DNA of 63,973 nt, the filler included, from Perkinsus olseni (Eukaryota): assembly GCA_013115125.1 (NCBI GenBank). It is 4 parts of 4 records of this genome, joined end to end, with 100 filler letters (N's around TTAATTAATTAA, not from the genome) between each part and the next. Parts side by side here need not be neighbours in the genome. Positions count along the whole stretch, not along the records: positions 1 to 17,101 come from JABANN010000656.1; positions 17,202 to 34,278 come from JABANN010000657.1; positions 34,379 to 51,424 come from JABANN010000658.1; positions 51,525 to 63,973 come from JABANN010000791.1. One strand, 5' to 3'. Position 1 is the first letter of the stretch. Each line of letters begins with the position of its first letter. The notes below the pieces were generated by a model. It saw nothing but the letters and a program-made list of their open reading frames with translations, was not told where the DNA came from and ran no database searches. Below are positions 8,526-62,247 of this stretch, piece by piece. A program made the position numbers and the translations under genes.

Positions 8526-9000
8526 CGGCGCCGTTGTGTCACTGACGAAACAGGCGAACGAATGAGTGGGCGTGGTGCGAGTGGGCGAGCGAGACGTTCT
8601 GTCCCGCCGTGACGTGAGTCATGTCACATCCCCCTGAGGCAGCCCATCGATCCTGTTCATTGCGTCTGAAGTTTACTCGACTTACAAAGTAAGTCTTACA
8701 TCTCGTTCGTGACATGGAGACTATCTCCAGGAGATGCATACAACACGCGATCACCCTGCCACGAGTGCCAACCCGTCTTTAAGACGGTCGGCAAGCATGC
8801 CACTGGGATGATGCCAGCGAGGCGATCACCTGATATCAGTCTTCCTGCCTCTGCAAGTGGGAGTGCCAGATGGCACTCCCACTAATAACTCAAATGCGTG
8901 GATAAACATGGAGAGGAGTACTGCTGACAGCTCCCTAGAGAACAGGAAACTAAACAAAACCCACACTAGCTTTTGTGAAACGTTGAACAATGTGCCGCAT

Positions 9001-12000
9001 TCAAGGTCTCATTATATGGACGCCCCCTTGTGAAGTCGCGACAGCTAGAATGTTTCGATTGGGATGATGGGACATTCCTGTGACTTCTCCGCTGTGTGCG
9101 TAAGGTACCACGTTCTCAAGCTCACCCGTCGCGGTGTCGAAGCAGTAACTGAGAAAGAGTAAGTATTTGCGAGCGATCTAAACTCCATCGGCATGACTGT
9201 AGAATTTCAAGGACTACGAGCTGGTCACAGACGAATATGCGCTGCTAGGATCTCGCTCACGAGCCAGTGGATAGACGAATCGTCCGGGACGATCGGCTGT
9301 CCATTCTACATTATAGTCTCTCACACGAACGGCCCGATCCCATATCACGCTACATCGTCCGATCTTCTGCCGCAGCATAGATCCACCTTCCTGCATGAGA
9401 TGTGCATAATAGGACGAAGTCTCCCTTACCGTCACGTTTACCTGCAACAAGAGATCAATTACTTACGAGCCCAGTGGTCGCCATCTAGCGGCTTGCTATT
9501 AGCGGGCTAAAACCTGGACAGCCAGGCCGTTCGAAAGAGGCTACACAACATGGACGCCGGCCTAGTGCCGAATGCGAACCGTTGTTCACGACAGCGCGGA
9601 AAAAACTTCAAGCAAAGATCAAAAAATACCCACCCCAAAATATTACCCGACTCGTACGACTTTAGCAATTGCCCAGAGACTGTCATGTGATGGACGGTGC
9701 TCGATTGCTGGCAAATGAGTAGTGTGTCCTCACTCTGGCCTGCAGAGGAATCACTTGGCACGATAACAATGTCGCGAACCTGAAAAGGAGGTGATACGGG
9801 CTCAGAAGATACTTCTCTTGAGGCCCTCTTACATCCAAAGTGATGTTCTCGTTTTGATATGACGGTGGAGGGGGTGGGAACTTATGAAGGATCTCGCTGG
9901 AGCGCAAGTCGAATACCCTTACGAATCCATCAGCACATCCGCTGACTACCTGTTAAGAGAGCACGCTGATACGCCAGAAATCATGCCGAGACGAAAGAGC
10001 TGTCGCCTACCAATCGCTGATGCCCGGGACCGTCAGCGAAACCAACACAATTGACATAACTCGTGTGGCCACGGAACTCTTTTAATGTACGACCGGAGTG
10101 CATTCCATGTAGCCTGCAAGTATTGTCGAGCGAGCCTGAGACAAAAGCAGACCGATTTTCAAGTTCATGACGAAGGGTACGCGAGCCTGGTTAGTGAAGA
10201 TCCGGCTCTACTATCGAGTTCTCAGGGGTAGGGGGATCCTCGTAGACAGGATCAAGCCGCACAGATAGTAATCGGACCGACATCGACTGATTCGCCGTAT
10301 TGTGAGGTATGACCTTCCGGGACGCTCAGTGATGTTGTAAAGCCTCTATACCATGGTACTGCCATGATGGTAGACGATGCTCACCTGTGAGGATCTTCTG
10401 ATTGTCCCTACTGAATTCCAAGCAAGTTATACCATCAGAGTGTACACTCTTGAATTCACCTGTAACATGGAACATAAGTTATGTTACATAACCAAACCGC
10501 TAAGAACTGACCGAGAAGTCTGCTCAGGAATAGCTGCGGTGGCAAGAGCGAAACTCACGAGTAATCTGTCCAGTGTGAATATCCCATACTCTGGCAGTGC
10601 CCTTGTCATCACCGGAAACTAGTGTGTTGCTATCGTGGCTGAAGGCGAGACTGAGGACCTTCGATCCATCAGGATGGCACATGAACCTAGAATAGGACAC
10701 AAGTTTTATCACAACGATAAACCCGCACTACTCTTTCCTCGCTTGGTAGGGCAGGTCTTCCTTGTTTCGTTTTCCAGTCCTGTGGTTCCAAACCTCAATG
10801 AGCCCATCGACAGCTCCTGTTACCAAAAACCTGAGCACAACATATTTCCCATGGTTTCTCACCATACCGAAAAGAGCGTCGATTCTCCAAAATGCAGAAC
10901 AATGCAGAATGCCCAACCCCACCAGAACGAGCCGAGATAGCAGAGAGAAGCCTAAACCTGTGTCTTCCACGTCAAACAGAATTGCGGATCCTGTACGAGG
11001 CAAGCGCTGGAGATCTTTGAGATATCTACAGTATAAGATCTGACCTAATGCCCCTAAAACTCACTGTCCAGAAGGGGAGAAAGCAATAGACTCAGGATGC
11101 GCGCCTTTTCCGAACTTGAGAATCTTTGACGTGTGCGTTGGAGGCTCTTCCGCAACAGCGTAATCTTGTACTGAAGAGTGTGCAGACTGGCATCGCATAG
11201 CCGGATATAAAGGCCGGCCTACCTTCCACATTACGTGACTTGGGCGCTGTTGTTCCTCTGAATATATCAATCTTCTCTCCTGAAATGGGAATGGCTATCT
11301 CCTTCTGAGCGATATGGAACGGACAGCTTGGCACCAGAAGATTGAAGCAGACAAACGACAGCAACCTCGCAACGATTTGACTAAGACACTCTGGGGTGAT
11401 TCTCCCAAGAGAACTGCACTGTTCCTAAAGCACGCGCCGCCAAAAAAGTGAAGTAAAGCAAAGCTCCAGGTCTGAGCCGATGAGGCCCAATGCATGTCCT
11501 GCACTCACCAGGTGGAAGCAAGTTTGCATTTTGTTGGTACTTTAAAGCCTGATTGAGCAGCGTTAATAACCGTTGTCCGTCCGCCTCTCGAAGGAATGGA
11601 CGGGCTCTCTCACCTACCGAACAACATAGGTTACGCCGGCATCATACAATCATTCGACCTATCGTACTACATCAAATGCGCGTTGAACCGCCGCCCACTC
11701 ACTCAGTTTCTTTCTCCTGACTTCGGGTCTCTCTTCTCCTTGGTACAGCTCGCTCTCAACAGGTATATACGGCTGCACAACCAGTCAAGTTCGAGGAGTT
11801 TCCCGACGCGCCAATGATTTCTTGATAACTTGGCCACGCTCGACCTACCTTATTCAACAAGGAATCTAGCCTCCGATACGTAAGGTTTTTCTGGCTATCA
11901 CCCTTCATGCTCTGCATAGGGGCGCTATGTTTCAATAGTAACGCACAAAGCTGCTTCTCACCGGCCCCAAGACACTCCAGGAAAGCCTGAGGTGCAGTCA

Positions 12001-13887: not shown

Positions 13888-15369
13888 GAAATCAGGTTCG
13901 AATGTGAATTTTACGAAGCCACTCGAGTGGTAGTATCGAAGCTGAAACCCACCTCATAGCATCCAGACTAGCTTCAGACGTGCTAGCCGGGCTGGGTATG
14001 AAACGGGCTGGCATGCGGGTATGAGCGCGGCAAAAACTGTGGAGGGCCAAACCATTTCACGCCGCCACTCACCCTCTCACCACATTCTTGATTTGAAGTC
14101 ATGAGAGATCTGCGAGGTTGAGTTGAGTTGAGATTGACACAGTTCAACTGTGGCAGTTGTCCGCGAGGTCAGTTGCTAACCTAGCGGCTTCCTATCGACA
14201 ATTACCCCCAGATCTACAGGACCTACTCCGCTAGAGGACCAAAAACTCTGATTCCACGGAGGAACTTCCTCCATCTCCAAATGTCACATTTTCTTTTCAG
14301 AATCCGTGAGTCATTGACTATATTATCGTACCCCGAATCACTGACTATATTATCGTCGTCTAGGCCACAACTGACCGTATCTTATGTGGCCTACCACCAA
14401 CATCCGGCGTAGCATACAGTATGACGTACTGGCTCAGTACTACTGAGTACGCTAATAGTATGTCGCATACTTCTTCGCGTGTTCTCGGCACCGTTGATGA
14501 CCAACCGCCGGTTGGCAATCGCTGGTCGCCCAGACGGTCAAAGAGAGCTGCCCCAACTAGCATCCAAAACATGAAACGAATTCACGCCCGCAGTCAAGAG
14601 TGACTAGAAACATTACATGAAAAAAACCAAATCGAAGAGTGACTCTTGACTGTCAGGAGTCCTGACTCAGGACTGTCCCGAATCCAAAATCGACGAAAAC
14701 AGGACATCAGCGGACAACGCGAGCCCAATCACTCCAACAGTACTTGTCCGGTCGATGCGAATTATGAAAGTGTCAACCCTTGATTCCAACTACAACGCAA
14801 AAGCTCATCGAAAGATGACACAAGATCGCCTGAGCACATAGGGCAGTACGTATGATTACCGGTACTCGAAGAAGAGATATGGGGCGAAAAGACAGTTAGT
14901 ATCTCGAGCAATATTAAGAAGATATCGTGTGGTACAAGCACGGGCGCATCTTGAGGTCTTTATGGCGGGATAAGCTTGCTCAAGATCGCGCGCCACAGAG
15001 GATACCATACTTAAGGCCTCATATGGAATCAGTTACACTAATGTATATCTACTAATAATCAAAAAACCTCTATCTATCACGTGATAAAAGAGTCATGCTC
15101 GAAGTTGAGCATTAGAAGTGACCATACGGACACCAGGGTCCACTTTCTTAGAATTACGCGCCTCAAACGCACCCCTCTTCACCAATACGCCTGACAAGAG
15201 AATACATAGAGCTTAAGCGCGTGGCAGGCGAGGCAAGTTCGGCATTGGCCCCATCTCTATAGATGACTGCAGCCTTCTCAGTCCGTCAGTAATGACTTAG
15301 AAATGAAAGGAGAAATATCGTTTCATCCAAAATCTCACCATGTCACGTTAGCTACTACGTCGAACGTTT

Positions 15370-17101: not shown

Positions 17102-17201
17102 NNNNNNNNNNNNNNNNNNNNNNNNNNNNNNNNNNNNNNNNNNNNTTAATTAATTAANNNNNNNNNNNNNNNNNNNNNNNNNNNNNNNNNNNNNNNNNNN
17201 N
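17102..17201. other. Artificial contig linker N44-TTAATTAATTAA-N44
   Basis: Identical 100-bp linker occurs three times and gives stops in all six frames. Confidence 0.98.
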
Positions 17202-17430
17202 TGCATTCCTCACTGATGAGAGCAGAACATCCTCAGGATAGAGGGGAGGCCGAGAAACTCAATCACCTTAGAGATACCGGATCCATGGCACCATTGAGGC
17301 ATTGTGGAGGAATGGGGTGCAAGGCGCCGTTGCCGACTTTCCTGAGTGTTCCGCCAGCATTGTCTGGCAGTCCCAGAACCGCTGCAGGGAGAAGGTAGAG
17401 CAGAACAATGAGGTGCTGTAAGGCAACCAT
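17202..17430 (-). CDS. 5' exons (signal peptide) of a fourth esterase paralog, cut by the contig edge
   Basis: Near-identical to 26752-26980 (MVALQHLIVLLYLLPAAVLG...IPPQCLNGAMDP). Confidence 0.75.
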
Positions 17431-17787
17431 ACTTACGAGGATATCCAAGTCTGCGCAGCGATAATGTCTTCAAGGTCATATCATGCATTAACGGTACACA
17501 ACTCAATTTATTCACCGCCTGACGCCATCACGATTGATTATCAATTTATGCCGGGGGAGTCTCTTCACTGCGGGCGCTCATCACAAATCTAGTCCGGAAG
17601 TTTTGGCTGCTACTAAAGCTTATCCTGTTAGCTGTGCATGCGCGTAGTCTAGGCTAGCAGTCCATCGGCCAGAACAGAGCATACAATAGACCCCGACTAA
17701 ATGCAAAGCTGTGAGCCACGACTGAGCAACAGCTGGTGCTTAGACACTCGGCGGACCTCTCAAGATCCCCTCTCAATCGTCCGCGTC

Positions 17788-18093
17788 TGTCGAGGAACTC
17801 GCAAAGTATTTGGAATCCTCTGCCAGGACAGTGTCCCGCGGGGACAGTCCCCGCGCCGCGACGTCATCGGCGTTGACCTTCTGAAGTACTTCGCCCTCCC
17901 CCCTTCGTTCGGGGGTAGTGCGGTGGTATCGTCGGCATCTCCGACGTTCCCGAGATCCCCGGTTGACGAACGTGACATGGGTGAGATGAATGCCAGAAGC
18001 AATGAACAAGACTAATGGGCTAGCCTCAGAGGGTGACGTGGTTCACGTCACGGAGAGACAGAACGGAGCGCTCGCCAACTCGCGCAAGCGACA
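17788..18093 (-). mobile_element. 3' LTR (306 bp) of an LTR retrotransposon
   Basis: Termini TGTCG...CGACA; polypurine tract GGGGGAAGGGGAG (minus strand, 18094-18106) directly adjacent; lies just downstream of the integrase ORF. Confidence 0.75.
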
Positions 18094-18120
18094 CTCCCCT
18101 TCCCCCGGAAAAAGCAGCTG

Positions 18121-19032
18121 TTAGGGAGATGCCGCTGGAAGTGAAGCAGAGGGCAGTTTGCAAACAGCTGCAGGCGAAATGAACTTCAGGTGGTGAAGAT
18201 GGACTCGCTTGGTCGACCGCAGGTTGGCTAAAGCGACCTTATAGAGTCGGGGAGAAACGACTTGAACAATCCGACACGGTAGGAAGGGACGGTAGTACTT
18301 CTTCTGCTTTCCAAACCGACGAGCTAACCAAATCTCGCCAACGGCAGGGAGGCGGCCGGAACGGAGTCGTGGTAGAGGCGGGGCAGAATCAGGGTAGTCT
18401 GCATCCGTGATGGTATCAACCGACTCCTCAGGAGGTCGGAAGACAGGGTCAACTTCTGGATAGGGCCAGGGAGAGAAGGAGAAGACCGAAGAATGCGGAG
18501 TACGACCAGTAAGGCGGGTTACAGCCGTGTTGAACATCGAGGTAGCCTTGACAATAGTGGTTTTGAAAAGTCCAAAGGAGAGGTCATCAGCAGAGGCTGA
18601 GCGTACACGCTCGTTAAGCACACGCTGCACTCGCTCGACTTTGTCATTCACCCAAGAGCTCGCGACAGATGACGGAACGGAAGAAGCGTGCATCCAGTTC
18701 AACGTGGAGAGGAACTCAGCCGACGTGAACTGGGAGCCGTCATCATGGTAAACCGTCCGCGGAACCGTGTTGAAGCACTCGAACATGGTCCGCAACAAGG
18801 CGGAAGCAACTTGAGAAGTAGGCATGGACTTGGTGACACGTGTGAGGAGGTAACCGCTGAAATTATCAACTAGAGTTACCACGTACAGCTCGTATTCCTT
18901 GTAAGGACCGACAATATCCATGTGAACCCGGAACATGTGAATAGAGCTATGAAGAGATTCAGAAAAAATGCCTCCAGAATTTCGGTAGCTCCCGTGGGAG
19001 GCCAGGAAGAGGCTTTCGGAGAGGGTCAGCAA
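18121..19032 (-). mobile_element. Ty3/Gypsy-type integrase (rve, DDE) of a 5'-truncated LTR retrotransposon
   Basis: Motifs VHMDIVGP, LVDNFSGY, YHDDGSQFTS and KVERVQR, with C-terminal RVHLHHLK. No RT or gag seen upstream. Confidence 0.85.
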
Positions 19033-21055
19033 GGCGACATCCGATCGGCCGCGCCAAATTTGGCGGTTGGTAACTTTCGGCTGGAAGGGGGCGAAGGAGG
19101 TTGTAGCGGCTCAGATGATAAAAGTGCTAGGGAATCCGTAGCGGTCGATTTGCCCGGGGCGATCGAGACCAATGGTAAAGGAGACCCGAACGCGATGGAG
19201 AGATGTAGCGGTTCACTGGAAGACAGAGGAACGGAAGGCGTCGCTAAGTCCAGATCGGTAAGGATGGACGTACCCGAGGCAGCTGGGAAGGAGAGCAAGA
19301 ACAGCCTCGCCAGCAGTGGAGACGAGAAGTGGGTGGAGATGGCCGTCCCTACATGCGTCTCGTGCTTCTGAAATCTGTGATAGATTACAGAGTACTCACG
19401 CTGCGCCGATGGAATGTCTATGTGCTCAACGTGAGAGCCCTGACAGGGGTGGGCTGCCACGCTCTGTGACCGAGAAGTTGCGGCGAGGACCTCCAGACCT
19501 GATCTGCCTCATGATACACGCCAATTGAAAGAGCTCAATGATCAAGAGCTTTCCAGAAGCGCTGACCCAGACGCGCTGCCATGCGTGCAATTATTGCGGA
19601 ACGGCTATTATAGCCGTTCCGCCGTCTCGGTCCATGCTGATCGATTAATAGCCGTGTTCATTGTTTTGCAACGGTTGATGCAACTGTCGGTGTCAACTGG
19701 AAAAGGGTCGAAATTTTGGTTCTTTTAGTCAACACTCGGAGCTTCTGCCCCCTCCATTTCTCCTGCGAGGGCATTTTGGTATGATTACTGGCGCTGCAAC
19801 CGGTACTGGATTGATACCCCTGCTCACGAGCAGATTGTATCTCCTCATCACGGGAACCGATGCACCCAACCAGCAGGAATCTATGTTTTGGTTCTGGACG
19901 AATGGAACTGTGAGTCTGCGGCTGTCTCTACTAGAGACTCTCTAGGGGTCCCGAAAGTTGTCGGAAAGAGTCGAAATGGAGAGAGCGAGAGGAGGCAAGC
20001 ATTTCCCCTCATAGCGACCGTAGTCACGTGGGTGACTCAACTCGCCTACCATTATCGCAGAAGCTATGTGTATTCCGTACTGTGCAACGGCCTGAAAGCC
20101 CGCTGTGGACAAAGTTGATGGTGGTCGACCAGTGATTGTTCTTTTCAGAGGTTAATTTTCGGCGTACTACAGCTCATACTGCTCCTTGATGCGGTTCTTC
20201 TATCGCTGGTTATACGCATTCTAGTGCTCGGCCTCAATGGTGAACTCTTCCCCGAGTGAGCCGGCGCGAAAAATGGGAGATTTGACGACGGTAGCAAAAA
20301 AGAGTCGCCGTGTTCGCCTAAGTTAAAGATTTCTCGTAGAATGGAAAACTATGGATCGTTTGACACCAATGATGCCACCGGAGTTGTTTTTCTCGAGTTT
20401 GCCCACGCTTTGAGAGAAGCTCGAGTAACACGCTTCGAACCTCTCGACTTTTCATCTGACTGGCGTGAGAGAGCCGCCTCTTGCGAGTCACTCGCAAGAG
20501 TGAAGGGTGTCCGATGTCGCAGCCTGCGAGTGAGTCTTTCCTCATTCACAATATGCAACCCCACGACGGCCGGTATGTGTAATCTCCATCCATGATAATC
20601 GCTTGCTCTGCCCCTTCTCAGTGACGATGCCGAAACCGATCACAGTGCGGAGTTGGCGCTTGTAGATGTTTTTGCTGGTATAGACTATACCGTATAGTTG
20701 TTATCCTCATCTTCCACCAGATTTGGCGAATGGTCGGTATTGCTATAGCAGCACGCTTGAAGACGGCTGTTATTTGTCGATGGGGTGTCGATCATATCAG
20801 GTCCCGGGGTTTTTGTACTACTTTACTCCGGCAACAGCGACCGAGTTGATGAAAAGGGCTAATATCATAGAGCAGACGGTAGAGAAGGAAGTGAGAGTTT
20901 TAAAAGGTGAGGAACAGTAACTGTTAGGCAGAGTACTAATCACGCGCGGACTTCGAGCGAATCGGCTTGTTCATAGAATCGTTGGAACATCTTCTTAGTA
21001 TAAGTCTTATACTATAAGAAAGTTGCAACAGTTTCCACTTGCAACTGGCGAGCTT

Positions 21056-21329
21056 AAACTGTACCAGAGGACACTGCACGAGGAGCAACTGTACTGAAAG
21101 CCACCGCACGAGTGGAAACTATACCAGAAGACACTGCACGAGGAGAAACTGTACCAGAGGACACTGCACGAGTGGCAACTGTACCAGAAGACACTGCACG
21201 AGCGGCAACTGTACCAGAAGACACTGCACGAGTGGCAACTGTACCAGAAGACACTGCACGAGGAGCAACTGTACTGAAAGCCACCTCACGAGTGGCAACT
21301 GTACCAGAAGACACTGCACGAGGGGCAAC
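21056..21329. repeat. 30-bp minisatellite, about 9 units (GCAACTGTACCAGAAGACACTGCACGAGTG)
   Basis: Direct tandem repeats; a variant unit (ACTGAAAGCCAC) appears twice. Confidence 0.95.
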
Positions 21330-22169
21330 AGATGCCCGGCAGCTGTAATACAGCTACTGTATCAGTTGACACGAGACGAGAATAGGATGTACTGATCAAA
21401 CACGTACCAGATGAACTCTGTACGAATTACTCCCTGTACCTCTGGCAAGAAGTGATATCCGCCTCTGCCCAGTGATTCGGGTTCACGCCTGAGAGTGTTC
21501 GAGGCAAATACACGACGAATCCGACATAAACTGCGTCATGCGGTAGCCATCGTGATGACCATGGTGATATGAACAACGCACTACTCGGTTTGCAATAGCG
21601 TTCACCAAACCGAGGATGCATCTCCGGCGAACCATTCCTCGTAATCTTGGTATCATAGCTTAACCGCTCGCGATAAGAGAATTCACGCATCTATTCAGGC
21701 TGCGGTTTCTGCGTATCTTCCGCGCACTACGAAATAAGTCGGTCCTTGATGAAGCGAGAGATGCAATCTTGGCGAGCCAGACAGAAGAGAGACCGAGCCC
21801 GACGTACAACCTGCAAGAGAGTCTTTTCGAGTTAGCACCGGCAGCCGCATCGACTGTTGACGATGAGTAATGCTGGGAAGCATGGGTTTACACCACTTTA
21901 TGCTACCAGATTCGACGCGGTTGCTGAACGTTGGTCAGCCGTGGACAGAATGGCCAATAGGATGAGACGGTCGACTAGAATGTCGCGTCGCTTGGTGAGT
22001 GTCGCTGTGCATGCGTGCTGAAGGGTCGCTTCGGCTGAGCTGACTCGGCTCCATGATGAGCTAGTGTACACCTTTCCCAGATCGTCGCGACGTGTACCTC
22101 TCATAATGAACTGTGATAAACGATAGGGAATACGAATCTGTCATCTTCGCTGCTAGCTAGAGCGTGGGT

Positions 22170-22690
22170 GTCCCGTCGAGTTCTCGGGGCGCGCCAGAAA
22201 CGATGACGTTTCGCTATGATTGGATTTGGTACGGGTCGTATCTTGGTGTACTTGAGCACAGTCTTGCCGCACGGAACCATAAGAAAGGAGGCATTGGGAT
22301 AACCGGTCAAATTTCAGCATGTCCCAGGGGTGACGGAGCTAGTCTTCAAATTGTACGATATCGATCACAACGGTCGACTCCAGTGAGATGAGCTTCGGCG
22401 AGCTATAGTGGCACAAGGAATAAACAGAGGAGATGCTGAGGTATTCGCCCATGCACGTCTCACTGAGAATAGTGCCGAGCACTGCGTTGCTCGGCTATCT
22501 CTTGTATGCTGTTTCGCTCCGCTTTAATTCTGTGACATGTTAGGTAGTTTTGAATGATTGGGTGGATATTTTTGACGTCGACGGCGACGGATGCCTGAAT
22601 CTCCGAGAGTTCAAGAATCTCGTGGTAAGACTACACCGGGGTCCGGTCGCGCTGCCAGAGTATACTGCGCAGCGCAGTCTGCGCTGATAG
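22170..22690 (+). pseudogene. EF-hand protein pseudogene
   Basis: EF loops YDIDHNGRLQ*DE and FDVDGDGCLNLREF in separate exons; three in-frame stops in the first exon. Confidence 0.65.
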
Positions 22691-23107
22691 TCTCTTTATT
22701 TAATGAAGTTTATCATGAAGTGAGATCGAGGATTCCAGTCTTGAGTCAACAACGAGTCTGTCGCTAACAGCAAATGCGCGTTTCTCTTTAGCGCCTGCGC
22801 TTGACGAGTAGTGTATAAAAATTTCGTGCCGTAGAAAGACTCTCACCGAGGTGTCTCTCTGTCTCGACCCTTTCTAGCGGAGATGTAGCGTAGAACGGCT
22901 AGCAGTGCCACATACTCCGTCGCACATATTAACAGTACCGCAGATTCCGATATACATATCAACAATGCCACATACCCCGTTGGCATATCACGGTCGTTGT
23001 ACACTACACTATACACTGCATTGCAGTATCGATCTTCCTTGCTTGCAGTCACTGCATCGAGATGATAGATAACCTCGCACTCGCAACAGTTTCAATGGAA
23101 TAGCAGA

Positions 23108-23560
23108 ATGGATATACAGCCGGTTGAAACATCTTCGGTTTATAATGCTCAGGCAGTTCTGGAGTACTTGGAATCACCTTTCGATGCCCCAGCTTGCCAC
23201 AAGTGGCTAGCGCGGGTGTTTAAGGTCAGTGATAATAAAGAAGAGACCACACCGAAGATATTCCAGAAGGGTATCCTTGAGCGATTAGGAACGCCGTTGC
23301 GAGAGTCTGAGGTGATGGTACTGCGGTTAGAAAACTTGTGGGCCGTATCGGTCCGCCTTCAGCAGGTGGCAGAATTCTCTCGAGCTGTGCTCAGGGCTGA
23401 GCCGTCGAGAGCGGATTGTAGTGGAGACGAGACGTAAGTGAGTGATGATGGGGTATCGCCGTTGAAGATTCGGCGACGCCGAGTCGGCGAGCACTCGGTC
23501 TGCATCGTGACGCTTCACCTCGCTCATAGAGTCTATGACATAGACGATGGTGTAACGTCA
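23108..23560 (+). mobile_element. Possible hAT transposase C-terminal (dimerisation) remnant
   Basis: LW...VAEFSRAVLRAEPSRADC...IRRRRV loosely resembles the hATC W..LA..VL..PSSA.CER pattern; interrupted by a stop. Confidence 0.35.
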
Positions 23561-23624
23561 CTGAAATTGGTAGCATCGTGTCTGCGGGCAGGAAACTTTC
23601 CTGAGGAAAGAGTACCCTTCAGAA

Positions 23625-23760: not shown

Positions 23761-24047
23761 CCTCTCTGGCAATGTCTCTGTGACATTGTCACATCGCACT
23801 TGATACATCAGTATTTCAGTCTCCTAATAATACTGATAGACTATTAGTAATAAATTATTACTAATAATCTATTATAGTCCATTAGGTGCGATCAAATCGA
23901 TCATCTGGGCGCGTGCTCAGCACATCCTTTACTTCTATGTTTGAGGGGCTTTCAACCAAAACCATTCCGAAAAATTTTCGGCGAAAACACTAGGATTCCC
24001 TTAGATGCGCATTATGGTGTGAACTACTACCAAACGCGATTCTGAAG

Positions 24048-24190: not shown

Positions 24191-25354
24191 CCCTCTCCCG
24201 AGTAACGTAGTAACGCCTCCAGCGTGATATGCTAATGCGTCGACGTTTTAAGCCTTCAAACGTGGAAGGTTTGACCTGTTGAATACAGTTTAATAAATTG
24301 AAAAGTATCCGGGCGAGGCCCTCGCCAGCTAGCTCTACTGGCCCAGTAGTATTGGGCAATGAGATGAGCTAGCTCCCATGTGTCTTTATCGGCTCTGTCA
24401 TGGTGGAATCCACCAGGTGGATTGAGAGGTATTCGGTTGATTTGGCATCAGACAACCTCCTGGTTGGTAATAGTTGCAGTAGAGGGGAGCTTGATACAAC
24501 TGGGAGATGGCGGAGGACTATGTATGCAAAATATCGGAGTGTTTGTACCAGTTTGTTCGGTTGAACCATGGAGCCTGTAAAATGATGTCCATTTCGATTC
24601 GTGTTGTCTTTGTTCCGTTATGAAGCATCGGCTGGCGCGGCTAGGCTGTGAGTCATATAAGCCAACTAGGCGCCCTCCGAGCGAGCACTTGGAATTTAGA
24701 GGCCCTTCGAACTTCGAAGGGTCTCTAGATTTGAAGTTCGAAGTCTTTTGGGTGGTGATGACTCGCTTCCCTTCGCGCATTGTTATTAAGATGTTAACAA
24801 ACATCAGTCATGCGGAGAGCTCGTTGAGTTGTATCAGAATCTCGAAGCCATTCGGATGACTCAATTTTCGAACTGGTGCGAAGTCGAGCGCCCCCGAGGT
24901 TGTTCATACTCCTAACACGACTCGACGATGCCACGCGAGAAGCGTCTTGAAAGGATAATGTCTTGAACGATTCCTTTATCCCATCCTGTCCTATCAGGAT
25001 GATCGGATCATTCTGATCCTGATAATATAAATGATACTGCGCATCAGAATGCTGCCCGTCTTAAGCGCATCGGGTCGCGAGCGGCCCATCACATGCGGAT
25101 GTAACAAGAAAAGCGTGGCACATGCGCGATTGGATGCCACAAGTCATGGGGCAAGACAATGAAAAAAGCGAGAATCATGTACGGAAGTATTCAATCGGAT
25201 CTATCCATGATCATCATCCTGCAAATCTGCTTCTGGCGTGAGTACACGCCTCTGGCGTCATCGTCGTGAATGATGCACTCACTAAAAAGTTAACACATGC
25301 CACATGTGACATGCGGGATGAACACCAGCTGATCAGCTATCCAGCTGAAAATTT

Positions 25355-34278: not shown

Positions 34279-34378
34279 NNNNNNNNNNNNNNNNNNNNNN
34301 NNNNNNNNNNNNNNNNNNNNNNTTAATTAATTAANNNNNNNNNNNNNNNNNNNNNNNNNNNNNNNNNNNNNNNNNNNN
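34279..34378. other. Artificial contig linker
   Basis: N44-TTAATTAATTAA-N44. Confidence 0.98.
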
Positions 34379-44500: not shown

Positions 44501-45938
44501 CCTCCGGTCAAGCGAGGAGGCTCTAGTGCCGCTCCGACGCCGCCCCGTGCTGTTGGGACACCCCCTCCACCTCCAGCTAGGCCTGGTAGCAGTACCCCTC
44601 CTGTATTAGAGCCCGAGCCCAAGCACGGTATGGCACCTCCCCCTCCCCCGCCGCCGCCCCGCGCTATGGACGACATGGCTTTGGCAATACCACACCCGCC
44701 GACGCCTCCACTCCCACCGGTCATGCCAGTTGGGCCATTGGCGATGGTCCCGATTGGTTATCCACCGGCCGTAGGTTTCGGCCCCCCTCCTAAGCCCCCT
44801 GTGTCGGCGATGGCTGCCCCTCCGGCTCCCCCTGCACCACCTACTGAGGACGTGAGCTCCTTCATCCGTCGGGTAAAGCTTGTCTATTTGGACAGAGTCC
44901 AACAAGAACATCAGAAACAGTCGATGAGGGAACAACGAGATCTCTTCAAGCCCATCCCGGAATGGGTCTACACCGCCGTCCTCGCATTGCCGTACCTAGC
45001 GTGCATAGCGTGGTGCATGGCCTGCTTCTTCATAGTCCTCACTTACTCCCTCAAGTTCAGCGAGGAGACGGAGGCGTTGTGGTACAAGGCAGTCATCGTG
45101 GCCGTGGCGGCATCAGTGTTCGTGTTGGATGTGGTCCGGTCATTAGTGAATATGATAGTCGAAGTGCGTAAGTTCGAGATCCGTCGCCGGAACAAGAAAG
45201 GAGAGTTCAATCAGAGAAAGGTTCGACCTATGGGTCGTGACGAGGAGGAGCATCTACCGGCCTTCCTTCGCACCAAGCCGAAGAGGTCCCAGCCCAAAAC
45301 TGCCCCCTTCCCGCCGTCCGTGGAGCGTCGTCGCCTCAGTGGCATGCGTACTGAAGATGGCATGCAGTTGCCAGTTGGGCCCCCACTGCCGGGGATCAAG
45401 GACGGCACTCCAGCCTGGGGTACGCCGTCCCCTAGCTCCCCGGCATCTACTGCACGTGATGTACCGCGGTTGCCTCCTATTGCTGCGCCACCCCTGTCGC
45501 GGAGCTCCTCCATCGTCGGCTCTGGTCGAGGCAGTCTTCCGAGATCTGTATCACCAGCAGGGGCTCGAACCCCACCATCGGTCATCGGATCCGCCCATGG
45601 TGTGAGTCGAGCGCTGCCGAGAGGCTCCTTCGTAGCACCCCCGCCACTGCCGGGCCAGCTGGCATCAGCTCGATCGTCGAGAGCGAGTTCTCCGAGGAGC
45701 CGCGTACCGACGCCGCCTTTGTCAGCGCGGTCGGCTCACAGCGGGAGTAGAGTTCCGACGCCAAATCTCTCGGACAGGATTAGAATGGGTAGGCCGCAGT
45801 GTATCGGTTTTTTGGCTCGTTGAATCATTAGTTTTTTCAGAGGCCGATCGATCTACTACTCCTCCTCCTCCACCACCGAGATCCAGATCGAACTCGCGTC
45901 AGATTAGGTCGCCAAGCTCTCGGGCTTCTCCAAGGTGA
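35529..45938 (+). CDS. Giant polycystin-1/PKDREJ-like membrane protein (WSC-like exon, REJ-like region, degenerate GPS, ~5 TM, polyproline loop). The 5' end and linkage of the upstream exons are uncertain.
   Basis: WSC-like SIGCYK...YTPRECWVMC; a single ~6.36-kb exon (39430-45788) with REJ-like motifs (YRWAFS, YSWSLL, WISEDTPLRFRFGY); GPS-like CTYWD...W..QG; PKD1-type FTRPQRLLCAL; last exon 45841-45938. Confidence 0.72.
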
Positions 45939-47041: not shown

Positions 47042-47791
47042 ATGACTTACGAAGCTCCTCACTTGAAGATCAGCGAGGGTGATATCCATCCGGTTGTGCT
47101 GGTCGTTGGAGATCCCTTCCGTGCCGAGATCCTGGCTACGAAATTCTGTGACACCTTCAAGGAGCTCTCGTTCAACCGTGAGTACCGCTCCTACAACGTC
47201 GAGTTTGAAGGCGCCAAGCTCAGCATCTGTTCCCACGGAATCGGGGGACCTGGTGCTCTGATATGCTTCGAGGAGCTCATCAAGTGTGGCGCTAAGACTA
47301 TTATAAGATTGGGGACCTGTGGCTCCCTCAAACCTGACACCATCAAGACTGGTGACCTCGTGGTCAGTACAGGTGCCTGCCGTGAAGATGGTGTTACTCA
47401 ATATCTGGTCCCGAGTGGCTTCCCGGCAATCTCTGACCCTCCGATATCTCTTGCTCTGCGCGACACCGCTAAAAGCATGGGAATTGACAACTGTCATTTG
47501 GGTATAACATTAAGCTCGGCCTTATTCTATGCTGGGCCATGTGAGGAAACTTCCTGGGTGAAAAACGCCACTGCCGGCGCTTTGTCTATTGAGATGGAGA
47601 ACGCTCCTTTGTTCACGATAGCCTCTCTGAGATCAATCCGCGCAGCCGCTATTGGTACTGTTGACGGATCGCCACTGAGATGGGACCAGGGTGACTACGA
47701 TCCGCACGGAGAAGCCTGCAAGAAGGGCAAAGAGAATATGTTCGCTATTGGATTGTCTGTCGCTAAACGAGTCGCTAGCGGCGAACTTTGA
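47042..47791 (+). CDS. PNP: Purine nucleoside phosphorylase / uridine phosphorylase (hexameric NP-I family)
   Basis: Motifs VGDPFRA, NREY, SHGIGGPG, IRLGTCGSL and EMENA; intronless, 249 aa. Confidence 0.9.
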   Translation: MTYEAPHLKISEGDIHPVVLVVGDPFRAEILATKFCDTFKELSFNREYRSYNVEFEGAKLSICSHGIGGPGALICFEELIKCGAKTIIRLGTCGSLKPDTIKTGDLVVSTGACREDGVTQYLVPSGFPAISDPPISLALRDTAKSMGIDNCHLGITLSSALFYAGPCEETSWVKNATAGALSIEMENAPLFTIASLRSIRAAAIGTVDGSPLRWDQGDYDPHGEACKKGKENMFAIGLSVAKRVASGEL

Positions 47792-48012: not shown

Positions 48013-50660
48013 ATGTCTGAAGAGGAGGATGCTGAGCTCCGAGAGGGCGACTCTACGGTGGATGGTGGTACCTCGGAGAATGTTTACACGTGGACCCAGA
48101 AGTGGGCTACTATACAGGTGATTCGACGGGCTTCCGTGGGCATCCGACGACAGGGAGCTTCCAGGCCCACCGGTGCACTGGACGCTGACCCTCTGGTGAT
48201 CTGCATTTAGATGCAATTGAAGCAGCTACATCGTGAGTGTGACGAGCTTCTAGGATCAAGCCGAACTTCGAACCCGAAGAAGGTCGGGTTGTATGAGTCA
48301 GGATGCTCTTAGCATCATCCACTCGCCTCTGGATCAGTTTGGCCTCACGAACGCAGAGTTGGCGGATCTGCGCGACGAGAACAAATGTTTAGAATTGGCG
48401 TTCGACAAGTGGGATGACGACCTCTACCGCACCTTGTCTGTCATTCGTGCCAAGGTAGTAGTGGGGGTAGTTCCGGGCTTGACAGCACTAGAGTAGTGAA
48501 TGGCGTTAGACGAAGGAGGCTGGACCAGGTTTATAAGTCCTCCGTTGATCGGATACGTCCACGTTATTCAGGAAGCAAGAGTTTGCTAGGTTCGCGAGTT
48601 CACCTCTAACGCTGAGAACCTTCCGGAGCAGACGCTGCGGAAGTCTGCTCTTGAGTTGGAGCATCGCATCACTAGGTAGAGCTACTAGGCCGCTAGATTG
48701 AAGTGTATGGAGTTACCGCTGAAGATACAAATCCCAGCAGAAGGTGGATTTCGATAGTATAATGGCAGAGGAGGAGCGGCTCAGTAGCCTGATGGAGAAC
48801 GCTTCGAGGCGATTCTCGAAGTGGCAACAAGTATCACATCTTTTTTCACGTGTATGGAATCAGTGAAGGAAGCTCTCTCAGAGTTCTTTCCTTACCTCGA
48901 GTCCGAAGAAGTACAATCCCGCGGCGTACCAGTCCTGTGGTGGGCGACCGGAGGAAGACCCCAGGCTAGAAGAGATTAGAAAAGCCATCATGAAAATAGC
49001 TGACCAAATCGAGTAGTGTTCTGAGCATCGGCCGATGTGAGGCTGTTGTGGCTGACAGTCACGAGGGAGGCAGGACGGGCGGCTGGAGCACGGCGGATCA
49101 CGAAGCTTTCCTGAAAGTAGTTGGCGAGTGTTGTTAGAAGTCACATTCGAGTCGAATGATTCGGCAGAGCGTGGGGTGATTTTGAGCACAGACTCGCTAA
49201 TTCATCATTTCTCTTACTCTGACCTTTGGCTTACAGAAGCAACAGGAGGTGGTGGGTAGGTAGTGACTGGCTGTCCCGGACGGCAGCCTGAGGGACTGCT
49301 CAGAGAGCAAGTCATGGACAAAATTATTCGGAAGTTGCCGAGCCAACTGGGCCACGACGAGGTTAAGGAACACATCGACTGGTGCTACGGCTTGCTCGGT
49401 CAGCTCACGATGATTGGTCCAAGTGACATTGCGTAGGTGGGGCCGATACAATGAGCTGGAAGCAGATAAAAAGGCGTTGATGGAGCGATACCGGGAGAGG
49501 AAGGAACTGTGGCAGAGAAAGCAAGGCGACGACCATGAAGTATGCGGCGAGTCTTGGCGAGGGCAGATCAGCCCACGGGCCTTGCAAGTAGGCTGATTTG
49601 GCGGCGGAGCGACGGATGGCTGAGAAACGCAGAGCCGCCGAGGAAGCTGCTAGAGTGGAGAGGAAACGACTCATTGAACAGTGGAAGAAGGAAAAAGAGG
49701 AGGCTGCACGAAAGGTGAGAATATGATGTGATTCAACCGCCACGAGCTTGCTCCTTAGCGGGAAGAAGAAGCGGTGGCTTCTCGCGCCGTAACAAGTGGA
49801 CCAAACGTATCCGAGCTGGAGAGGCGGAGTAAAGAAAAACAGGTCGGTGAGAATTCGGCAGTACCCCTATATCTTGTAGCCCCTCCAATCAGCGTCTTTA
49901 CTTTTCAGCGCCTCACCGCGTACCGCGAGGAAAAGCTCCGCAGAGAGCAAGAAGAGCAGAGACTGAGGCGTGAGCGTGTACGTCGTTCAAGCGCGGAGTC
50001 TACTTCGCGATTAGCTGTGTTACAGGAAGCAACGGCCCGTCGTTGTCGATCCACGGAACGGCCACGGTTCGAGCAGAGGAACGCGGAAATCATCAGGGGA
50101 CTTACGAATGCCAGGGCGCAGCGGGAGGACTCGGAAATCAAAGCTCAGAGGAGAGAGCAAAAAGTACATCCGTACTGGGTGTGCTAGGAATCTCACAACT
50201 TCTGATTTGGAGCGACTCACAGTTGCGTTCGCCCCCCAGACAACCTCGGTGCTCGTGAGGCCTCATCAGTAGGTATTGGCGGTCTCCCACCAGATACTTT
50301 CGCAGCTTAGCGCCCCATATGAAACTGTGACGACAAGACTGTTTGATGCCACTGCCTCACAGAAACGGCGGATTAAGGCAAGGGAGGAAGAGAAGAAGGA
50401 GCAGACGGAACTGATGGACACAGAGAGAAAGAAACATGGTGAATATCAATCAAAACCTCATTAGGGGGTATGCGACTCACTTCGCTCCCGTACAGGCGTT
50501 GTAGTCGCCGAGAAGTTCGGCAAGGCCACTGGCTCGTTTGCAGGAAGCGTGATACACACGAAATTAACGTCCACGCCAGCGTGGCGACAACGCCTTTCCA
50601 CTCTGCCCATTTGGATAATTGTGACTCGCGTTCCAGGGCAGTGGAGCTCGCCTGCTTCTA
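48013..50660 (+). CDS. Coiled-coil protein, CCDC112-like, multi-exon, end approximate
   Basis: Peptides GGWSTADHEAFLK and HDEVKEHIDW..YNELEADKK, E/R/K-rich helices and a C-terminal PAWRQ. Confidence 0.55.
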
Positions 50661-50745
50661 AGCCGGTTCACGAAAGTCTTTCGCCGAAATCAACCAAGTC
50701 CCAACCGTTCCTCGAAGTCTACTCTACAATATTAGGCGCGACAGA

Positions 50746-50827
50746 GACAGCGTGTCCGAGTGGTTAAGGAGGTGGACTAGAAATCCACTGGGCTCTGCCC
50801 GCGCAGGTTCGAATCCTGCCGCTGTCG
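50746..50827 (+). tRNA. tRNA-Ser (anticodon AGA)
   Basis: GACAGCG...GTGGA-CT-AGA-AA-TCCAC...GTTCGAATCC...CGCTGTC-G; 82 nt with a long variable arm. Confidence 0.96.
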
Positions 50828-51424: not shown

Positions 51425-51524
51425 NNNNNNNNNNNNNNNNNNNNNNNNNNNNNNNNNNNNNNNNNNNNTTAATTAATTAANNNNNNNNNNNNNNNNNNNN
51501 NNNNNNNNNNNNNNNNNNNNNNNN
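51425..51524. other. Artificial contig linker
   Basis: N44-TTAATTAATTAA-N44. Confidence 0.98.
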
Positions 51525-51592: not shown

Positions 51593-51599
51593 ATGTTAG

Positions 51600-54754: not shown

Positions 54755-54780
54755 TGTCCCGCATGTTATCATTTCATCCA

Positions 54781-58490: not shown

Positions 58491-59794
58491 TCACTTGCGT
58501 ACTGGTCGTTTAATGCACCTTCGCGCGGCGACCGTGGAACAACTTTGAACCCGGCGACCGCAGGGCGGTGCCCGCATCTGGTCCCATGACTCGTGAGACG
58601 CGAACTGCTTCACTACAGGCCTATCAGGGGTTGTGATTCCGATCTCCTTGCGATCGAGATTAACGTAGACGTCGTGTTGTGCTAGGAAAGGACCACCAAG
58701 AATAAAGGCATCAGGGGAACCTCCCGCACTTATCAGAAGGCGACACCATTCTTTTTCACATAAATTCGAGTGATAGCTCAAATCCACCTCAAAAGTAGAT
58801 CCCGCGGCACCTTGAACGATAACCCGAGGAAGGTATTCGGTCACAGTCCTGCGTAACCAGATCCAGCCTTTAGGATCGATACGAGCATATAGATGGTCGA
58901 AGCTGGTGGGATGGAGCGTAGGTGGTCTGCTTGCAACGCGTTGATGGCCGAACGTCGATGCAATAGTTGCCCATATCATCGAGAATACCTCCTTAGGGAC
59001 GGTGGTAACATCACAGCCGGTATCAATAGCCACCGGAAGAGAGTCTCGCTTCATCGATAACTCCCTTACATGACTGCCGTGGGGCGCACTCTGCACTCTG
59101 ACGCCAGACGCCGGTATTGCAAAGAGTGCTGCAGACCACGAGACGTTGCTGAGGGGAAAGAATTTCGTATCTTCCCGCTTTGCTGCGGATTCGCCGAGGA
59201 TCAACTGACCAGTTATACCAACGCCGAACTCAGATACACGCACTGAGAAGGCAGTCTCAGAGATCGCTCCGGCGCTCACGAGTTGGCTGAGCAGAGGCGG
59301 CATCCCAGCTTCTGTAATCGGCTTGGACGAAGGGATGCTAAGTTCCAAAGTGGCAAAGGGTTGCTGTCCATCTTCTATGCGTGAGCTTCCAATCATCAGA
59401 CCGATCAGTAAATTGCGGATCTCTCCCTTGCCCAACTTCAAGGTTACTCTCCGATTGACGAATCTGATAACACGTCCGCTACCGTAGCCAACTGAGTGTA
59501 TTTTTTGGGCCCGCAAACTGGCGAGGTCACATGGGTCCGTCGGAGGGCAGAAGTAGCATCCCGAGGCGAGATCCTTGCATGAGTTGCTCCCGTAGATGCT
59601 TTCATACCAACCACCGTAAATCAGGTACGACCTGTAGCCGCCACTATCGGCAAGAAGACTTATGTAACATAAGTTATGTTACGACCATCGAAACTCATTT
59701 CCACATGATTGTTCTTCAACGGGAAGGTCAGTGACGGAGAAGTGGAGGCTAGCTTCCACGACACCGCCGAGTGGAGTATAGCGACTCTCAGCAT
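58491..59794 (-). pseudogene. A1 (pepsin-like) aspartic protease copy A, frameshifted by a +14 bp fold-back insertion
   Basis: Removing 14 bp within 59659-59680 gives a 430-codon ORF from MLRVAILHSAVSW with DSG, DTG and FILGGPFL motifs. Confidence 0.85.
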
Positions 59795-60904
59795 TTGAAG
59801 TGGGCAATGACCCTAGTGACGACAAGCGATGAAAGGGTTCACTGCCCGTAGAAACTACTGCACTGCAGATCGCACTTCGCGGTGATTCCATATAATATGG
59901 ACCATATTCACCACTCTGCACGTGGTTAAGCCGATCAAGGAAATTATCAGCTTTTCTGATGTGACACTTCAATGACCGTTATATATCTCTAATGCATCAA
60001 TGCCGCACTGCGCCGGGGCCACGTTATGGAAATGCTGCCGCTCGAGCGCATGTAACCGGCCGAAAGAGGGCGCCCAAGCTATCGATAGCAACTTCCACTG
60101 CAGTGCGCTCGAGCCTGTACTGATGAAAAGTAGCTGATTGACGACGGTTGAGCCCTGCTGGTGTAGCCTCACTGCCTGTACAGCAGCGCCTGATTCCGAG
60201 ACGTGACTTCATCTCTGCACTTCTTGCTTCGATCCCGCACGATGGTCGAGCAATACGACCCCCCCCCAGCCAGCATGCGAGTAGCACGACCTTACGAACC
60301 GGTCCGGTATGCTAGGTAAAAAGTCACAACATCCGACGGTTCCCATGCATTATCGCAGATGATTCATCAGGCTAGAATTAAGAGATGAGCCTTTCGCAAG
60401 ATCGTCACCTCTCACTCTGGAAGTACACAGAGCATATCGGGCCCGCAAGGCTCCGTAGTTCGTCACAGTGCGGACGTGCATAACACTCGTGGCTCGAGCG
60501 AAATGCAGCTCAGGAACTCGGAATGCCACCCGAAAGACTCTGTGCTAGTGAGGGCACGGGTACCTGCCAATACGCCGAGCACATCGAGGTTCCGTTTTGC
60601 TAATGTGTTCATTCGAGCGGGTTCTTCGTGACTACATGGTCTGAGTTGTGGAGAGCTGGTATCGCTAACTTCTGTTTGTGGAGCCGTTAGGCCTCATGGG
60701 GATCATCGGAAATCTCCCTTTCCCTCGAATCGGGAAATTTCCGGGGCACGAAAAAACAAAATTTCCGGCGATTGCAGCAACTGTCCCGCTAATGGTTACT
60801 ACTAGCGACAAAACAAACGACACGCCCAATACACCAACATCATCAGCATCATCATCGAGCTTGCAAATTGCGGAAAACAGCGGCGTCGCGTTGACTCAGC
60901 GACC

Positions 60905-62247
60905 TCAATCGCGCACGAAATTTCGACCAGGCCTTCGGAAAATTCGACTCATTATGGAACGGTGTTCTTCTTTCCGGCGGCAAGGAGGCTGTCGGATGCT
61001 GGCCCACTGTTCTTGAGATGGAATCTCCTTCACTACTGCCCCTGTAGGGGTTGAGAGACCGACAAACCCACGATAAAGGTCAATGTAGACGTCATGCTCC
61101 GCGAAGAATGGTGCACCAAGGATGAAGTTGTCGAAAGAGTCATCAGCCCGGAGTCTGCTCGTCACCAGAAGACGACACCATTCTCCTTCACATGAATGTA
61201 CATGATGGGTCAAATGCATCTCAAAAGCGGATCCAGATTCACCTTGGATAACAAGAACAGGGAGCTTCCCCAAGACCTTTTTGCGCACCTTGATCCACCC
61301 GGCAGAACTGACGAATGCGTCTAACCTCTTGAGCTTAGCTGCTTGCGCAGCCTCCGGGCTATCAGCGACACGACCTCGACCGACTTCGGCCTCGATAGCT
61401 TCCAATATCATTGAGAACACCCTCTTAGGGACGATGGTGTCATCAGTACCGGTATCGATCACCACACTAAGATAGGCTTCTTGGTTCGAGAACTCTATAA
61501 CCTGATCTTTGCCGGACGGGCTCCTCACCCGAATTGCTGATGCAGATAACGCAGAAGCTACTTTATTCCAGGATGGCCTCCCAAGGGAAAAGACTGTCAT
61601 CTCCAACGGCTTCTTTGCGGAGTCCCCAAGGACCAATTCCCCAGTTATTCCCACAGAAAACTTGGACACACGAACCGAGAAAGTCGTCTGTGGGATTACC
61701 CCGGCCTTAACGAGTTGCCCGAGCAAAGGTGGACACAAAACTCCTGTTACCGAATTAGGCGGGGGAAGGGTAATCCCAAGCACAGCGTAGGGTTGAATGT
61801 CGCGCTGCAGGCGTGTGCTCCCGACAAGCAAACCGATTTGCAAATCCTTAATCTCTCGTTCACCAACTTTCAAAGTCACCGTCCGCATCACGAATTCGTC
61901 AGTTTGGCGGGCTGCCCCATCGGTCTTACCAGCACCATAGTAAACTTTGCGTATTTTTTGAGTCCGCAAACTGTCAAGGTCGCATGGGTCTGTTGAAGGG
62001 CAGAAGTAGCACCCTGAGGCGAGTTTTTCGCACGAGTCGGGGCCGTAGAACCTTTCATACCAACCACCATAGACCAGATACGAGATGAAGCTCGCACTGT
62101 CGACAAAAAGGTTTATGGGATGACCATCGAAATTCATCTCTACTTGAGTGTTTCTCATCGGGAATGACAGTGGAAAAGAAGCGGCAGTCATCTTCCACAA
62201 GTCGTGGACCACGACAAAGCCGAGTGGAGTATCGCTGCTCTCAGCAT
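60905..62247 (-). pseudogene. A1 aspartic protease copy B, signal-peptide region frameshifted by a +14 bp fold-back insertion
   Basis: Removing 14 bp within 62194-62215 gives a 443-codon ORF from MLRAAILHSALSW. Motifs DSA, DTG and FILGAPFF. Confidence 0.85.

Follow-up and report, generated by a model that had tools for sequence, protein, structure and literature searches.

What leaves the same 22-bp fold-back, over and over, in the genome of Perkinsus olseni? The question is raised by a stretch of assembly GCA_013115125.1, 63,973 nucleotides with filler included (the window hereafter), in which a sequence-only reading had recognized a motif fully determined by a single 8-mer X: bases 1-7 of X, followed by the reverse complement of X, followed by bases 2-8 of X. 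We consider it probable that these motifs are excision footprints, referred to below as scars, left in the nuclear genome by a cut-and-paste DNA transposon that duplicates 8 bp on insertion and forms hAT-type hairpins on its flanks when it leaves. The window consists of four contigs of 17101, 17077, 17046 and at least 12449 bp, numbered 1-4 in this order; because they are joined by N linkers, neighbouring parts are to be taken as unlinked in the genome.

With N runs left out of the count, the window contains 21 perfect copies of the motif, whereas ten mononucleotide shuffles and ten block shuffles yield none. Under majority-rule scoring, in which each column is judged by the majority over the three arms, sites with 0, 1, 2 and 3 mismatches number 21, 18, 17 and 23, against shuffle means of 0, 0, 0.6 and 5.5. 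The motif is tied to one length: exact versions built on words of k=6, 7 or 9-14 are absent from the window, and with at most one mismatch 39 sites are found at k=8, one at k=7 and none at k=9-11. For k=6 there are six one-mismatch sites, compared with 1-5 in shuffles. Among direct repeats of at least 6 bases the only peak lies at period 14 (46 versus 12.2 ± 3.6 in 20 shuffles), and the direct repeats of period 7-9 expected from classical short footprints are not enriched in the window. The sequence-only reading had named six perfect sites (10471, 14652, 19924, 20677, 20998 and 59659) and had judged them too many for chance. All six are perfect on rescan and the shuffles agree with that judgement, but the count was too low by 15 sites. 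Its single mismatch at 8680, 29796 and 31641 is likewise borne out; at 62194 it holds by the majority over the arms, while the reading's own rule gives two. The sites it described as extended (27759, 29013 and 33854) are real and turn out to be complex versions of the scar.

Scars are unevenly distributed. Fifty of the 56 sites with 0-2 mismatches lie in contigs 1-2, approximately one per 680 bp, and the remaining six lie in contigs 3-4 at approximately one per 4.9 kb, a density approximately 7-fold lower that could come from selection or targeting. Contigs 3 and 4 are also more GC-rich than contigs 1-2 and contain long open frames. Within contigs 1-2 the scars are mildly clustered, with a variance-to-mean ratio of 1.65 per kb. 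No site of the 39 with at most one mismatch falls within any of the four transfer RNA (tRNA) genes of the window.

Comparison with paralogous sequence identifies the scars as insertions. Seven scars have a comparator in the window; in every case the 8-mer is single-copy there and the scar is an exact insertion, of 14 bp in five cases and larger and complex in the other two; the earlier claim of a +14-bp insertion thus stands for 5/5 standard scars that can be compared. When two aspartyl-protease paralogs are aligned, two reciprocal 14-column gaps fall exactly at scars 59659 and 62194, the first paralog lacking exactly the 14 bp of the latter. Where paralog B of a hydrolase family has scar 29796, paralogs A and C each show a 14-column gap, and paralog B in turn has a 14-column gap in place of scar 33464, lacking exactly its 14 bp. 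The 14 bp of scar 27047 are precisely those absent from a repeat copy at 17350-17561. For the complex scars, 33854-33927 adds 44 bp to a single 8-mer when set against the copy at 17548-17700, and at the position of 29007-29149 paralog C has one 8-mer between identical flanks.

The palindromes themselves point to a hairpin intermediate. Perfect palindromes whose arms reach 7 nt or more around a 1-nt centre occur 75 times, as opposed to 2-7 times in ten shuffles (approximately 15-fold), and even palindromes, with a centre of 0, are not enriched (7 versus 1-6 in ten shuffles). With the same arm threshold, 2-nt centres occur 3 times (1-8 in shuffles) and 4-nt centres 5 times (1-6); 3-nt centres are in excess (29 versus 1-11), mostly through the same objects being counted with shorter arms. 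A hairpin closed one nucleotide into the flank predicts the identity of the apex base, namely the complement of the innermost duplicated base. Where all three 6-nt arms are perfect (25 sites), the apex bases are the predicted complement of the matching outer base at 45/50 positions, both in 21 sites, one in 3 and none in 1.

Three complex scars are especially informative about the ends before joining. In 27759-27810 the left copy of the 8-mer is followed by an 8-nt inverted tract, and the right part is a 37-nt odd palindrome (18-nt arms) made up of the right copy and 11 nt of the right flank. The layout of 33854-33927 is the same, with a left tract of 8 nt and a right 59-nt odd palindrome with 29-nt arms. 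In 29007-29149 the left copy carries an odd palindrome with 13-nt arms and the right copy one with 7-nt arms; between them lies a filler of 101 nt (29034-29134) that includes two internal direct repeats of approximately 23-29 nt, has no second copy in the window and shows single-copy depth. All three scars keep both copies of the 8-mer, each with its own palindromic tract (8+18, 8+29 and 13+7 nt), and therefore each end carried its own fold-back tract, of up to 29 nt, before the ends were joined. Opening of the hairpins far from the apex, as the sequence-only reading had supposed, is borne out by these tracts of 7-29 nt. In both directly joined scars (27759-27810 and 33854-33927) the shorter tract is exactly 8 nt, which may point to a favoured cutting site at the border of the duplication, although little can be built on a pair of cases. 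Lone odd palindromes at 19596 and 20478 (both in Table 1) and at 24703 have arms of 9-13 nt and may be one-sided products.

These observations can be accommodated by a single sequence of events. On insertion the element would duplicate exactly 8 bp. On excision a transposase, the probable maker of the hairpins, would nick one nucleotide inside each flank and the 3' end would be joined to the opposite strand, so that each flank would be closed as a hairpin with the complement of the innermost duplicated base at its tip; the first nick of Hermes is reportedly placed one nucleotide into the flank. The host would then cut the hairpins open, not at the tip but several to tens of nucleotides away from it, whereby the folded-back strand would become a 3' overhang with an inverted copy of the duplication. 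Overhangs complementary over the 8-mer would anneal and be filled in, giving ABCDEFG-hgfedcba-BCDEFGH (reverse complement in lower case) and a net gain of 14 bp. Any opening at least 7 nt from the tip would suffice, and the +14 product would be obtained by either strand. In a variant route, a 1-2-nt overhang on one end would prime on the long tract of the other end. Failure of annealing would leave two palindromic tracts joined directly or with filler DNA. Of these elements the hairpin chemistry is well supported. The proposal that the ends are joined through complementary copies of the duplication agrees with the dominant +14 product and with the lack of enrichment of short footprints; as to the exact route, the data would fit two far-opened hairpins or a short primer equally, and joining by microhomology or by a polymerase-theta-like activity appears probable.

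A length fixed at 8, together with the odd, complemented centres, speaks for a hAT element, and hAT is the most likely superfamily of the putative donor. Footprints of Ac/Ds are palindromic (P-nucleotide) insertions, at whose centre stands the complement of the base that adjoins the element, and in yeast they have arms of up to 20 nt with frequent microhomology (PMC5873905; this paper, PMC5499845, PMC3706591 and PMC8101967 are drawn on here in excerpt). The hAT-type label of the sequence-only reading holds in that the 8-bp duplication and the complement-centred odd palindromes match this signature; as a statement about the donor itself it goes further than the signature does. The target sites provide an additional comparison. 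Ac-type hAT elements prefer targets of the form nTnnnnAn. In the scar 8-mers T2/A7 occupies 28/70 strand-symmetrised positions (binomial P=0.0025) and G2 is depleted (8/70), in a sample of 35 sites only. The central TA of the Buster-type preference nnnTAnnn (PMC3499496) is absent as a preference from the same 8-mers, and the scar 8-mers lean towards the Ac-type and away from the Buster-type.

Several observations weigh against an excised hAT element as the source. The target-site preference is weak at n=35. The ratio of at least 56 scars to no element in 64 kb is very lopsided: no donor was found in the window, and no element-filled allele appears at scarred 8-mers among the contig matches listed. 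No hAT-related Pfam domain is present in 18 open reading frames (ORFs) or in 145 open stretches of at least 74 amino acids (4407-39630). A full-text search of the literature returned no report of hAT elements in Perkinsus. In the same ORFs and open stretches Pfam detects no transposase domain other than one retroelement integrase; this integrase core (rve, E=2e-12), at 18124-19110, is the sole mobile-element protein domain found in the window. The interval 28838-32205, which has an 8-bp duplication and inverted ends, was considered as a donor and rejected, since such structures are at chance level (0-1 in 5 shuffles) and its ends diverge after 14 nt. A fuller version of the proposal can be offered only tentatively: a low-copy, very mobile transposon with an 8-bp duplication may be active in P. 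olseni now or have been so recently, perhaps without ordinary inverted ends, its excisions being healed nearly always by far-opened hairpins and annealing of the inverted duplication.

The scars are also present in other sequence data from the species. We compared the window with Logan-built contigs from runs of two studies (X1 and X3), of a third study (X7) and of an isolate with approximately 3% divergence (X8). Either X1 or X3 may be the source of the assembly, so the two are not fully independent of it. X1 and X3 contigs cover the scars so marked in Table 1, including all three complex ones, without gaps and with 0-1 differences. X7 contigs contain joints with CT..AC ends that skip 45-84 nt, and the DNA runs have no such joints; because these joints read as introns of minus-strand genes, X7 is taken to be RNA. 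An X7 contig spliced at 30182/30259 is colinear over 29635-30182, scar 29796 included, with 0 differences, and another (28621-29527) is colinear through the filler scar 29007-29149. Scars are thus found in same-species contigs from three studies, one of them apparently a spliced transcript.

Evidence for unscarred alleles comes from the same contigs. An X8 contig over 27581-28592 has 12 deleted letters, as calculated from spans and gap total, too few for any scar to be lacking there. Another, over 33006-33856, has a total gap of exactly 14 letters, and from this gap count by itself we take it as an empty allele at scar 33464. In X1, X3, X7 and X8, many contigs of one repeat family fit the window only from 27793, just past the palindrome centre at 27792, and their unmatched letters resemble the original left flank of scar 27759-27810, which fits copies devoid of this complex scar. 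Bin 26892-27461 is left uncovered by X7 and bin 22902-23471 by X8, and nothing is drawn from either.

Mismatches within the scars are consistent with gradual decay. In the 18 one-mismatch scars the mismatch lies in the apex pair in 3 and in an arm in 15, approximately as random point mutation over 22 positions would place it. Constant birth of scars followed by neutral decay is expected to fill the mismatch classes equally; classes 0-3 contain 21, 18, approximately 16 and approximately 17 sites after subtraction of the shuffles, and in the 34.2 kb of contigs 1-2 the sites with no, one and two mismatches number 17, 16 and 17. Both the even filling and the placement of mismatches fit old events that decay by point mutation. 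One class spans 1/22 substitution per site, and therefore scars in contigs 1-2 would arise at roughly one per hundred point substitutions.

The distribution and persistence of the scars bear directly on other explanations. Palindromic chimeras are a general class of library artefact, but a sequencing or assembly origin is hardly credible here: X1 and X3 contigs from two studies (either possibly the assembly source) repeat the scars with 0 gaps, the spliced contig of the third study and the divergent isolate carry scars as well, 58 of the 79 scored sites have 1-3 mismatches, and density differs approximately 7-fold between contigs of one assembly. We give as little credence to the view that the 14 bp are removed from RNA, as tiny introns or by editing, and that the genes remain intact. 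A public protein model of hydrolase paralog B does skip the region by an intron, yet the X7 contigs, presumably RNA, are colinear through scar 29796 and through the filler scar. Programmed DNA elimination was set aside, given that the scars carry point mutations and occur in transcripts. Very improbable, too, is a process independent of transposons, such as a domesticated nuclease or template switching, that would write three arms at single 8-mers. It would be in keeping with the absence of a visible element from the window and with the mild clustering of scars, but three copies of an 8-mer are impossible to derive from one without an earlier duplication, and in the filler scar two full copies, each bearing a palindrome, are separated by 101 nt. 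Nor does template switching explain why the length is always 8 or why the one-base centres are complements.

A more serious contender, although still unlikely, keeps the hairpin mechanism and assigns it to a donor outside hAT, be it a Dada, Mutator-like, Merlin-like or undescribed DDE family. Dada elements, a group with ties to hAT, MuDR and P, have been described from P. marinus; their duplications are of 6-7 bp, often in tRNA or small nuclear RNA genes, and the flanking repeat of one family can be read as 8 bp, the authors preferring 6 (PMC3706591). They have no terminal inverted repeats (PMC3706591), which would explain an empty scan for inverted ends. Merlin-related ORFs are likewise present in P. 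marinus, in copies without recognisable ends, and Merlin duplications are of 8-9 bp; Mutator-like elements have 8-10-bp duplications and flank hairpins, that of Muta1 being 43+43 nt (PMC8101967, PMC5499845). The lengths tell against these families, since the scars keep strictly to 8 (39 sites with at most one mismatch, where k=7 has a single one and k=9-11 have none), as opposed to 6-7 for Dada, 8-9 for Merlin and 8-10 for Mutator-like elements. A Dada footprint was rejected, k=6 and k=7 having no exact sites and 0/39 sites lying in tRNA genes. So was a Mutator-like one: there are no sites at k=9 or k=10 and, if the Muta1 flank hairpin is read as flush, even palindromes would be predicted, and these are not enriched. 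In the corresponding test for Merlin, length 8 is present at the scars and length 9 is absent. Excision of a hAT-type element would account for both the single length and the odd centres.

Two gene families in the window show what the scars do to coding sequence. Tandem aspartyl-protease paralogs, two or perhaps three in number, are located at 58494-59822, 60905-62290 and 63343-63972, and the first two are 45% identical in protein. In a tblastn search with the paralog, homology of the first copy to its neighbour changes frame exactly at scar 59659. The hydrolases form a tandem 'peptidase S9-like' family restricted to Perkinsus, on the minus strand at 25446-26790, 28646-30734, 31671-33654 and 17202-17786, with short GT..AG introns, 45-84 nt long as seen in X7 contigs. 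Several scars lie in copies B and C, and copy A has an open frame of 370 amino acids. The public protein model of paralog B (P0144) is in a different frame on each side of scar 29796 and bridges the two with an intron of approximately 116 nt (29693-29808), for which the spliced X7 contig, colinear there, gives no support; it seems to have been introduced in annotation to get round the frameshift. The description of the scars as a major frameshifting mutagen, made in the sequence-only reading, is thus sustained by frame breaks in two genes, and the word major applies to this window.

Coordinates of the scars, lone palindromes and contig joins are given in Table 1.

Table 1. Scars and related features of the P. 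olseni window (positions in the window; X1, X3: covered by contigs of these runs)
Feature	Position	Basis or remark
Perfect +14 scar	4580-4601	motif scan
Perfect +14 scar	4787-4808	motif scan
Perfect +14 scar; fourth near-matching arm runs on to 8251 (four-arm site 8223-8251)	8223-8244	
Perfect +14 scar	10471-10492	motif scan
Perfect +14 scar	14652-14673	motif scan
Perfect +14 scar	19924-19945	motif scan
Perfect +14 scar	20677-20698	motif scan
Perfect +14 scar	20998-21019	motif scan
Perfect +14 scar	22664-22685	motif scan
Perfect +14 scar	23524-23545	motif scan
Perfect +14 scar	23589-23610	motif scan
Perfect +14 scar; five-arm site 23840-23875 reads as a perfect scar within an older two-mismatch scar	23847-23868	
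Perfect +14 scar	24401-24422	motif scan
Perfect +14 scar	27047-27068	motif scan; repeat copy as comparator; X1, X3
Perfect +14 scar	27845-27866	motif scan; X1, X3
Perfect +14 scar	27945-27966	motif scan; X1, X3
Perfect +14 scar	28371-28392	motif scan; X1, X3
Perfect +14 scar	34901-34922	motif scan
Perfect +14 scar	36414-36435	motif scan
Perfect +14 scar, in coding region of aspartyl-protease paralog	59659-59680	motif scan, paralog comparison
Perfect +14 scar, upstream of the aspartyl-protease paralog that carries scar 59659	59887-59908	
Scar, 1 mismatch	8680-8701	motif scan
Scar, 1 mismatch	8796-8817	motif scan
Scar, 1 mismatch	10352-10373	motif scan
Scar, 1 mismatch	14138-14159	motif scan
Scar, 1 mismatch	14426-14447	majority rule
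Scar, 1 mismatch	17832-17853	majority rule
Scar, 1 mismatch	21341-21362	motif scan
Scar, 1 mismatch	23772-23793	majority rule
Scar, 1 mismatch at an apex	23967-23988	
Scar, 1 mismatch	24335-24356	motif scan
Scar, 1 mismatch	25294-25315	motif scan; X1, X3
Scar, 1 mismatch (apex), in hydrolase paralog B	29796-29817	X1, X3
Scar, 1 mismatch	30348-30369	majority rule; X1, X3
Scar, 1 mismatch	30779-30800	motif scan; X1, X3
Scar, 1 mismatch (apex)	31641-31662	X1, X3
Scar, 1 mismatch, near hydrolase paralog C	33464-33485	X1, X3
Scar, 1 mismatch	49144-49165	motif scan
Scar, 1 mismatch, just upstream of likely start codon of second aspartyl-protease paralog	62194-62215	
Complex scar, 8-nt tract joined straight to 37-nt odd palindrome	27759-27810	X1, X3
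Complex scar with 101-nt filler	29007-29149	X1, X3
Complex scar, 8-nt tract joined to 59-nt odd palindrome	33854-33927	X1, X3
Lone odd palindrome, 13-nt arms, candidate one-sided footprint	19596-19622	
Lone odd palindrome, 11-nt arms, candidate one-sided footprint	20478-20500	
Contig joins	17102-17201, 34279-34378, 51425-51524	linker N44-TTAATTAATTAA-N44

Other features of the window are as follows. The four tRNA genes are located at 1876-1957, 3920-3991, 4219-4290 and 50746-50827; two of them are carried by a 93% identical tandem duplication (3914-4241 / 4213-4540), and the tRNA sequences at 1877-1959 and 50744-50826, on different contigs, share 96% identity. An uninterrupted ORF of 2125 amino acids with an REJ domain (E=2.4e-21) occupies 39446-45823, in the scar-poor, GC-richer part. 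A nucleoside phosphorylase is encoded at 47042-47788, 100% identical to a P. olseni protein and 89% identical to one from P. marinus, and a second gene family likewise points to P. olseni. A eukaryotic origin is also apparent from the REJ-domain ORF, the eukaryotic aspartyl proteases, the retroelement integrase, the tRNA genes and the short GT..AG introns. Repeats include an array of 60-bp tandem units at 21049-21329, a 22-nt tandem repeat with very high read depth at a contig end (34234-34277) and a (TGT)n microsatellite at a contig start (51525-51592). Direct repeats of period 16 at 25325-25348, 28862-28884 and 31922-31945 have a common core, CAGCTGA, and two of them lie in homologous parts of hydrolase paralogs B and C.

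Work on excision footprints has usually relied on reporter assays that deal with a handful of them; here they are recorded in a wild genome at up to one per 700 bp and nearly always as one product. They provide a mutational signature of hairpin repair that can be counted, in an alveolate about whose repair pathways little is known, and a source of frameshifts, probably transposon-driven, that strikes tandem families, the aspartyl proteases and S9-like hydrolases. A scar seems to explain at least one wrong intron in public gene models, and the scars can serve as discrete markers, shared or polymorphic between isolates. If the fuller version of the proposal is true, a single 14-bp signature would be a leading genome-wide source of insertions, deletions and frameshifts, and the scars would be a natural read-out of unusual double-strand-break repair in a relative of dinoflagellates and apicomplexans. 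Should the signature extend genome-wide, the whole history of a transposon's movement would be readable without the transposon being seen.

A search of literature in full text, with supplements outside it and the species' genome paper possibly beyond its reach, returned no account of such scars in Perkinsus and no wild genome reported with one dominant +14 product. Individual aspects of the scars do have counterparts in known systems. The proposed joining by terminal complementarity is shared with microhomology or polymerase-theta end joining, as is the 101-nt filler with direct repeats in one scar. Transib duplications are of 5 bp and those of Mutator-like elements of 8-10 bp, in contrast to the strict 8 bp and odd palindromes observed here. 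Flank hairpins that are opened by the host and end-joined are nonetheless common to V(D)J coding joints, Transib and Muta1 (PMC5499845). The Dada and Merlin-related elements of P. marinus belong to the same genus, encode DDE transposases and make long duplications, but these are of 6-7 or 8-9 bp, and the excerpts of PMC3706591 and PMC8101967 describe neither excision scars nor their chemistry. The hairpin model of Hermes, hobo and Tam3 shares the one-base centre that is the complement of the innermost duplicated base; no transposase of that kind was found in this window. The scars also resemble the footprints of Ac/Ds in plants, budding yeast and Candida albicans, with 8-bp duplications, complement-centred palindromes and microhomology joins (PMC5873905). 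Ac/Ds footprints, as far as the excerpt describes them, are heterogeneous and mostly short (up to 3 nt in Candida), whereas here the full inverted duplication (+14) dominates, in a natural and dense record with no visible element. We regard the hairpin chemistry as known and the uniform repair outcome, at very high density and with an unseen donor, as unusual.

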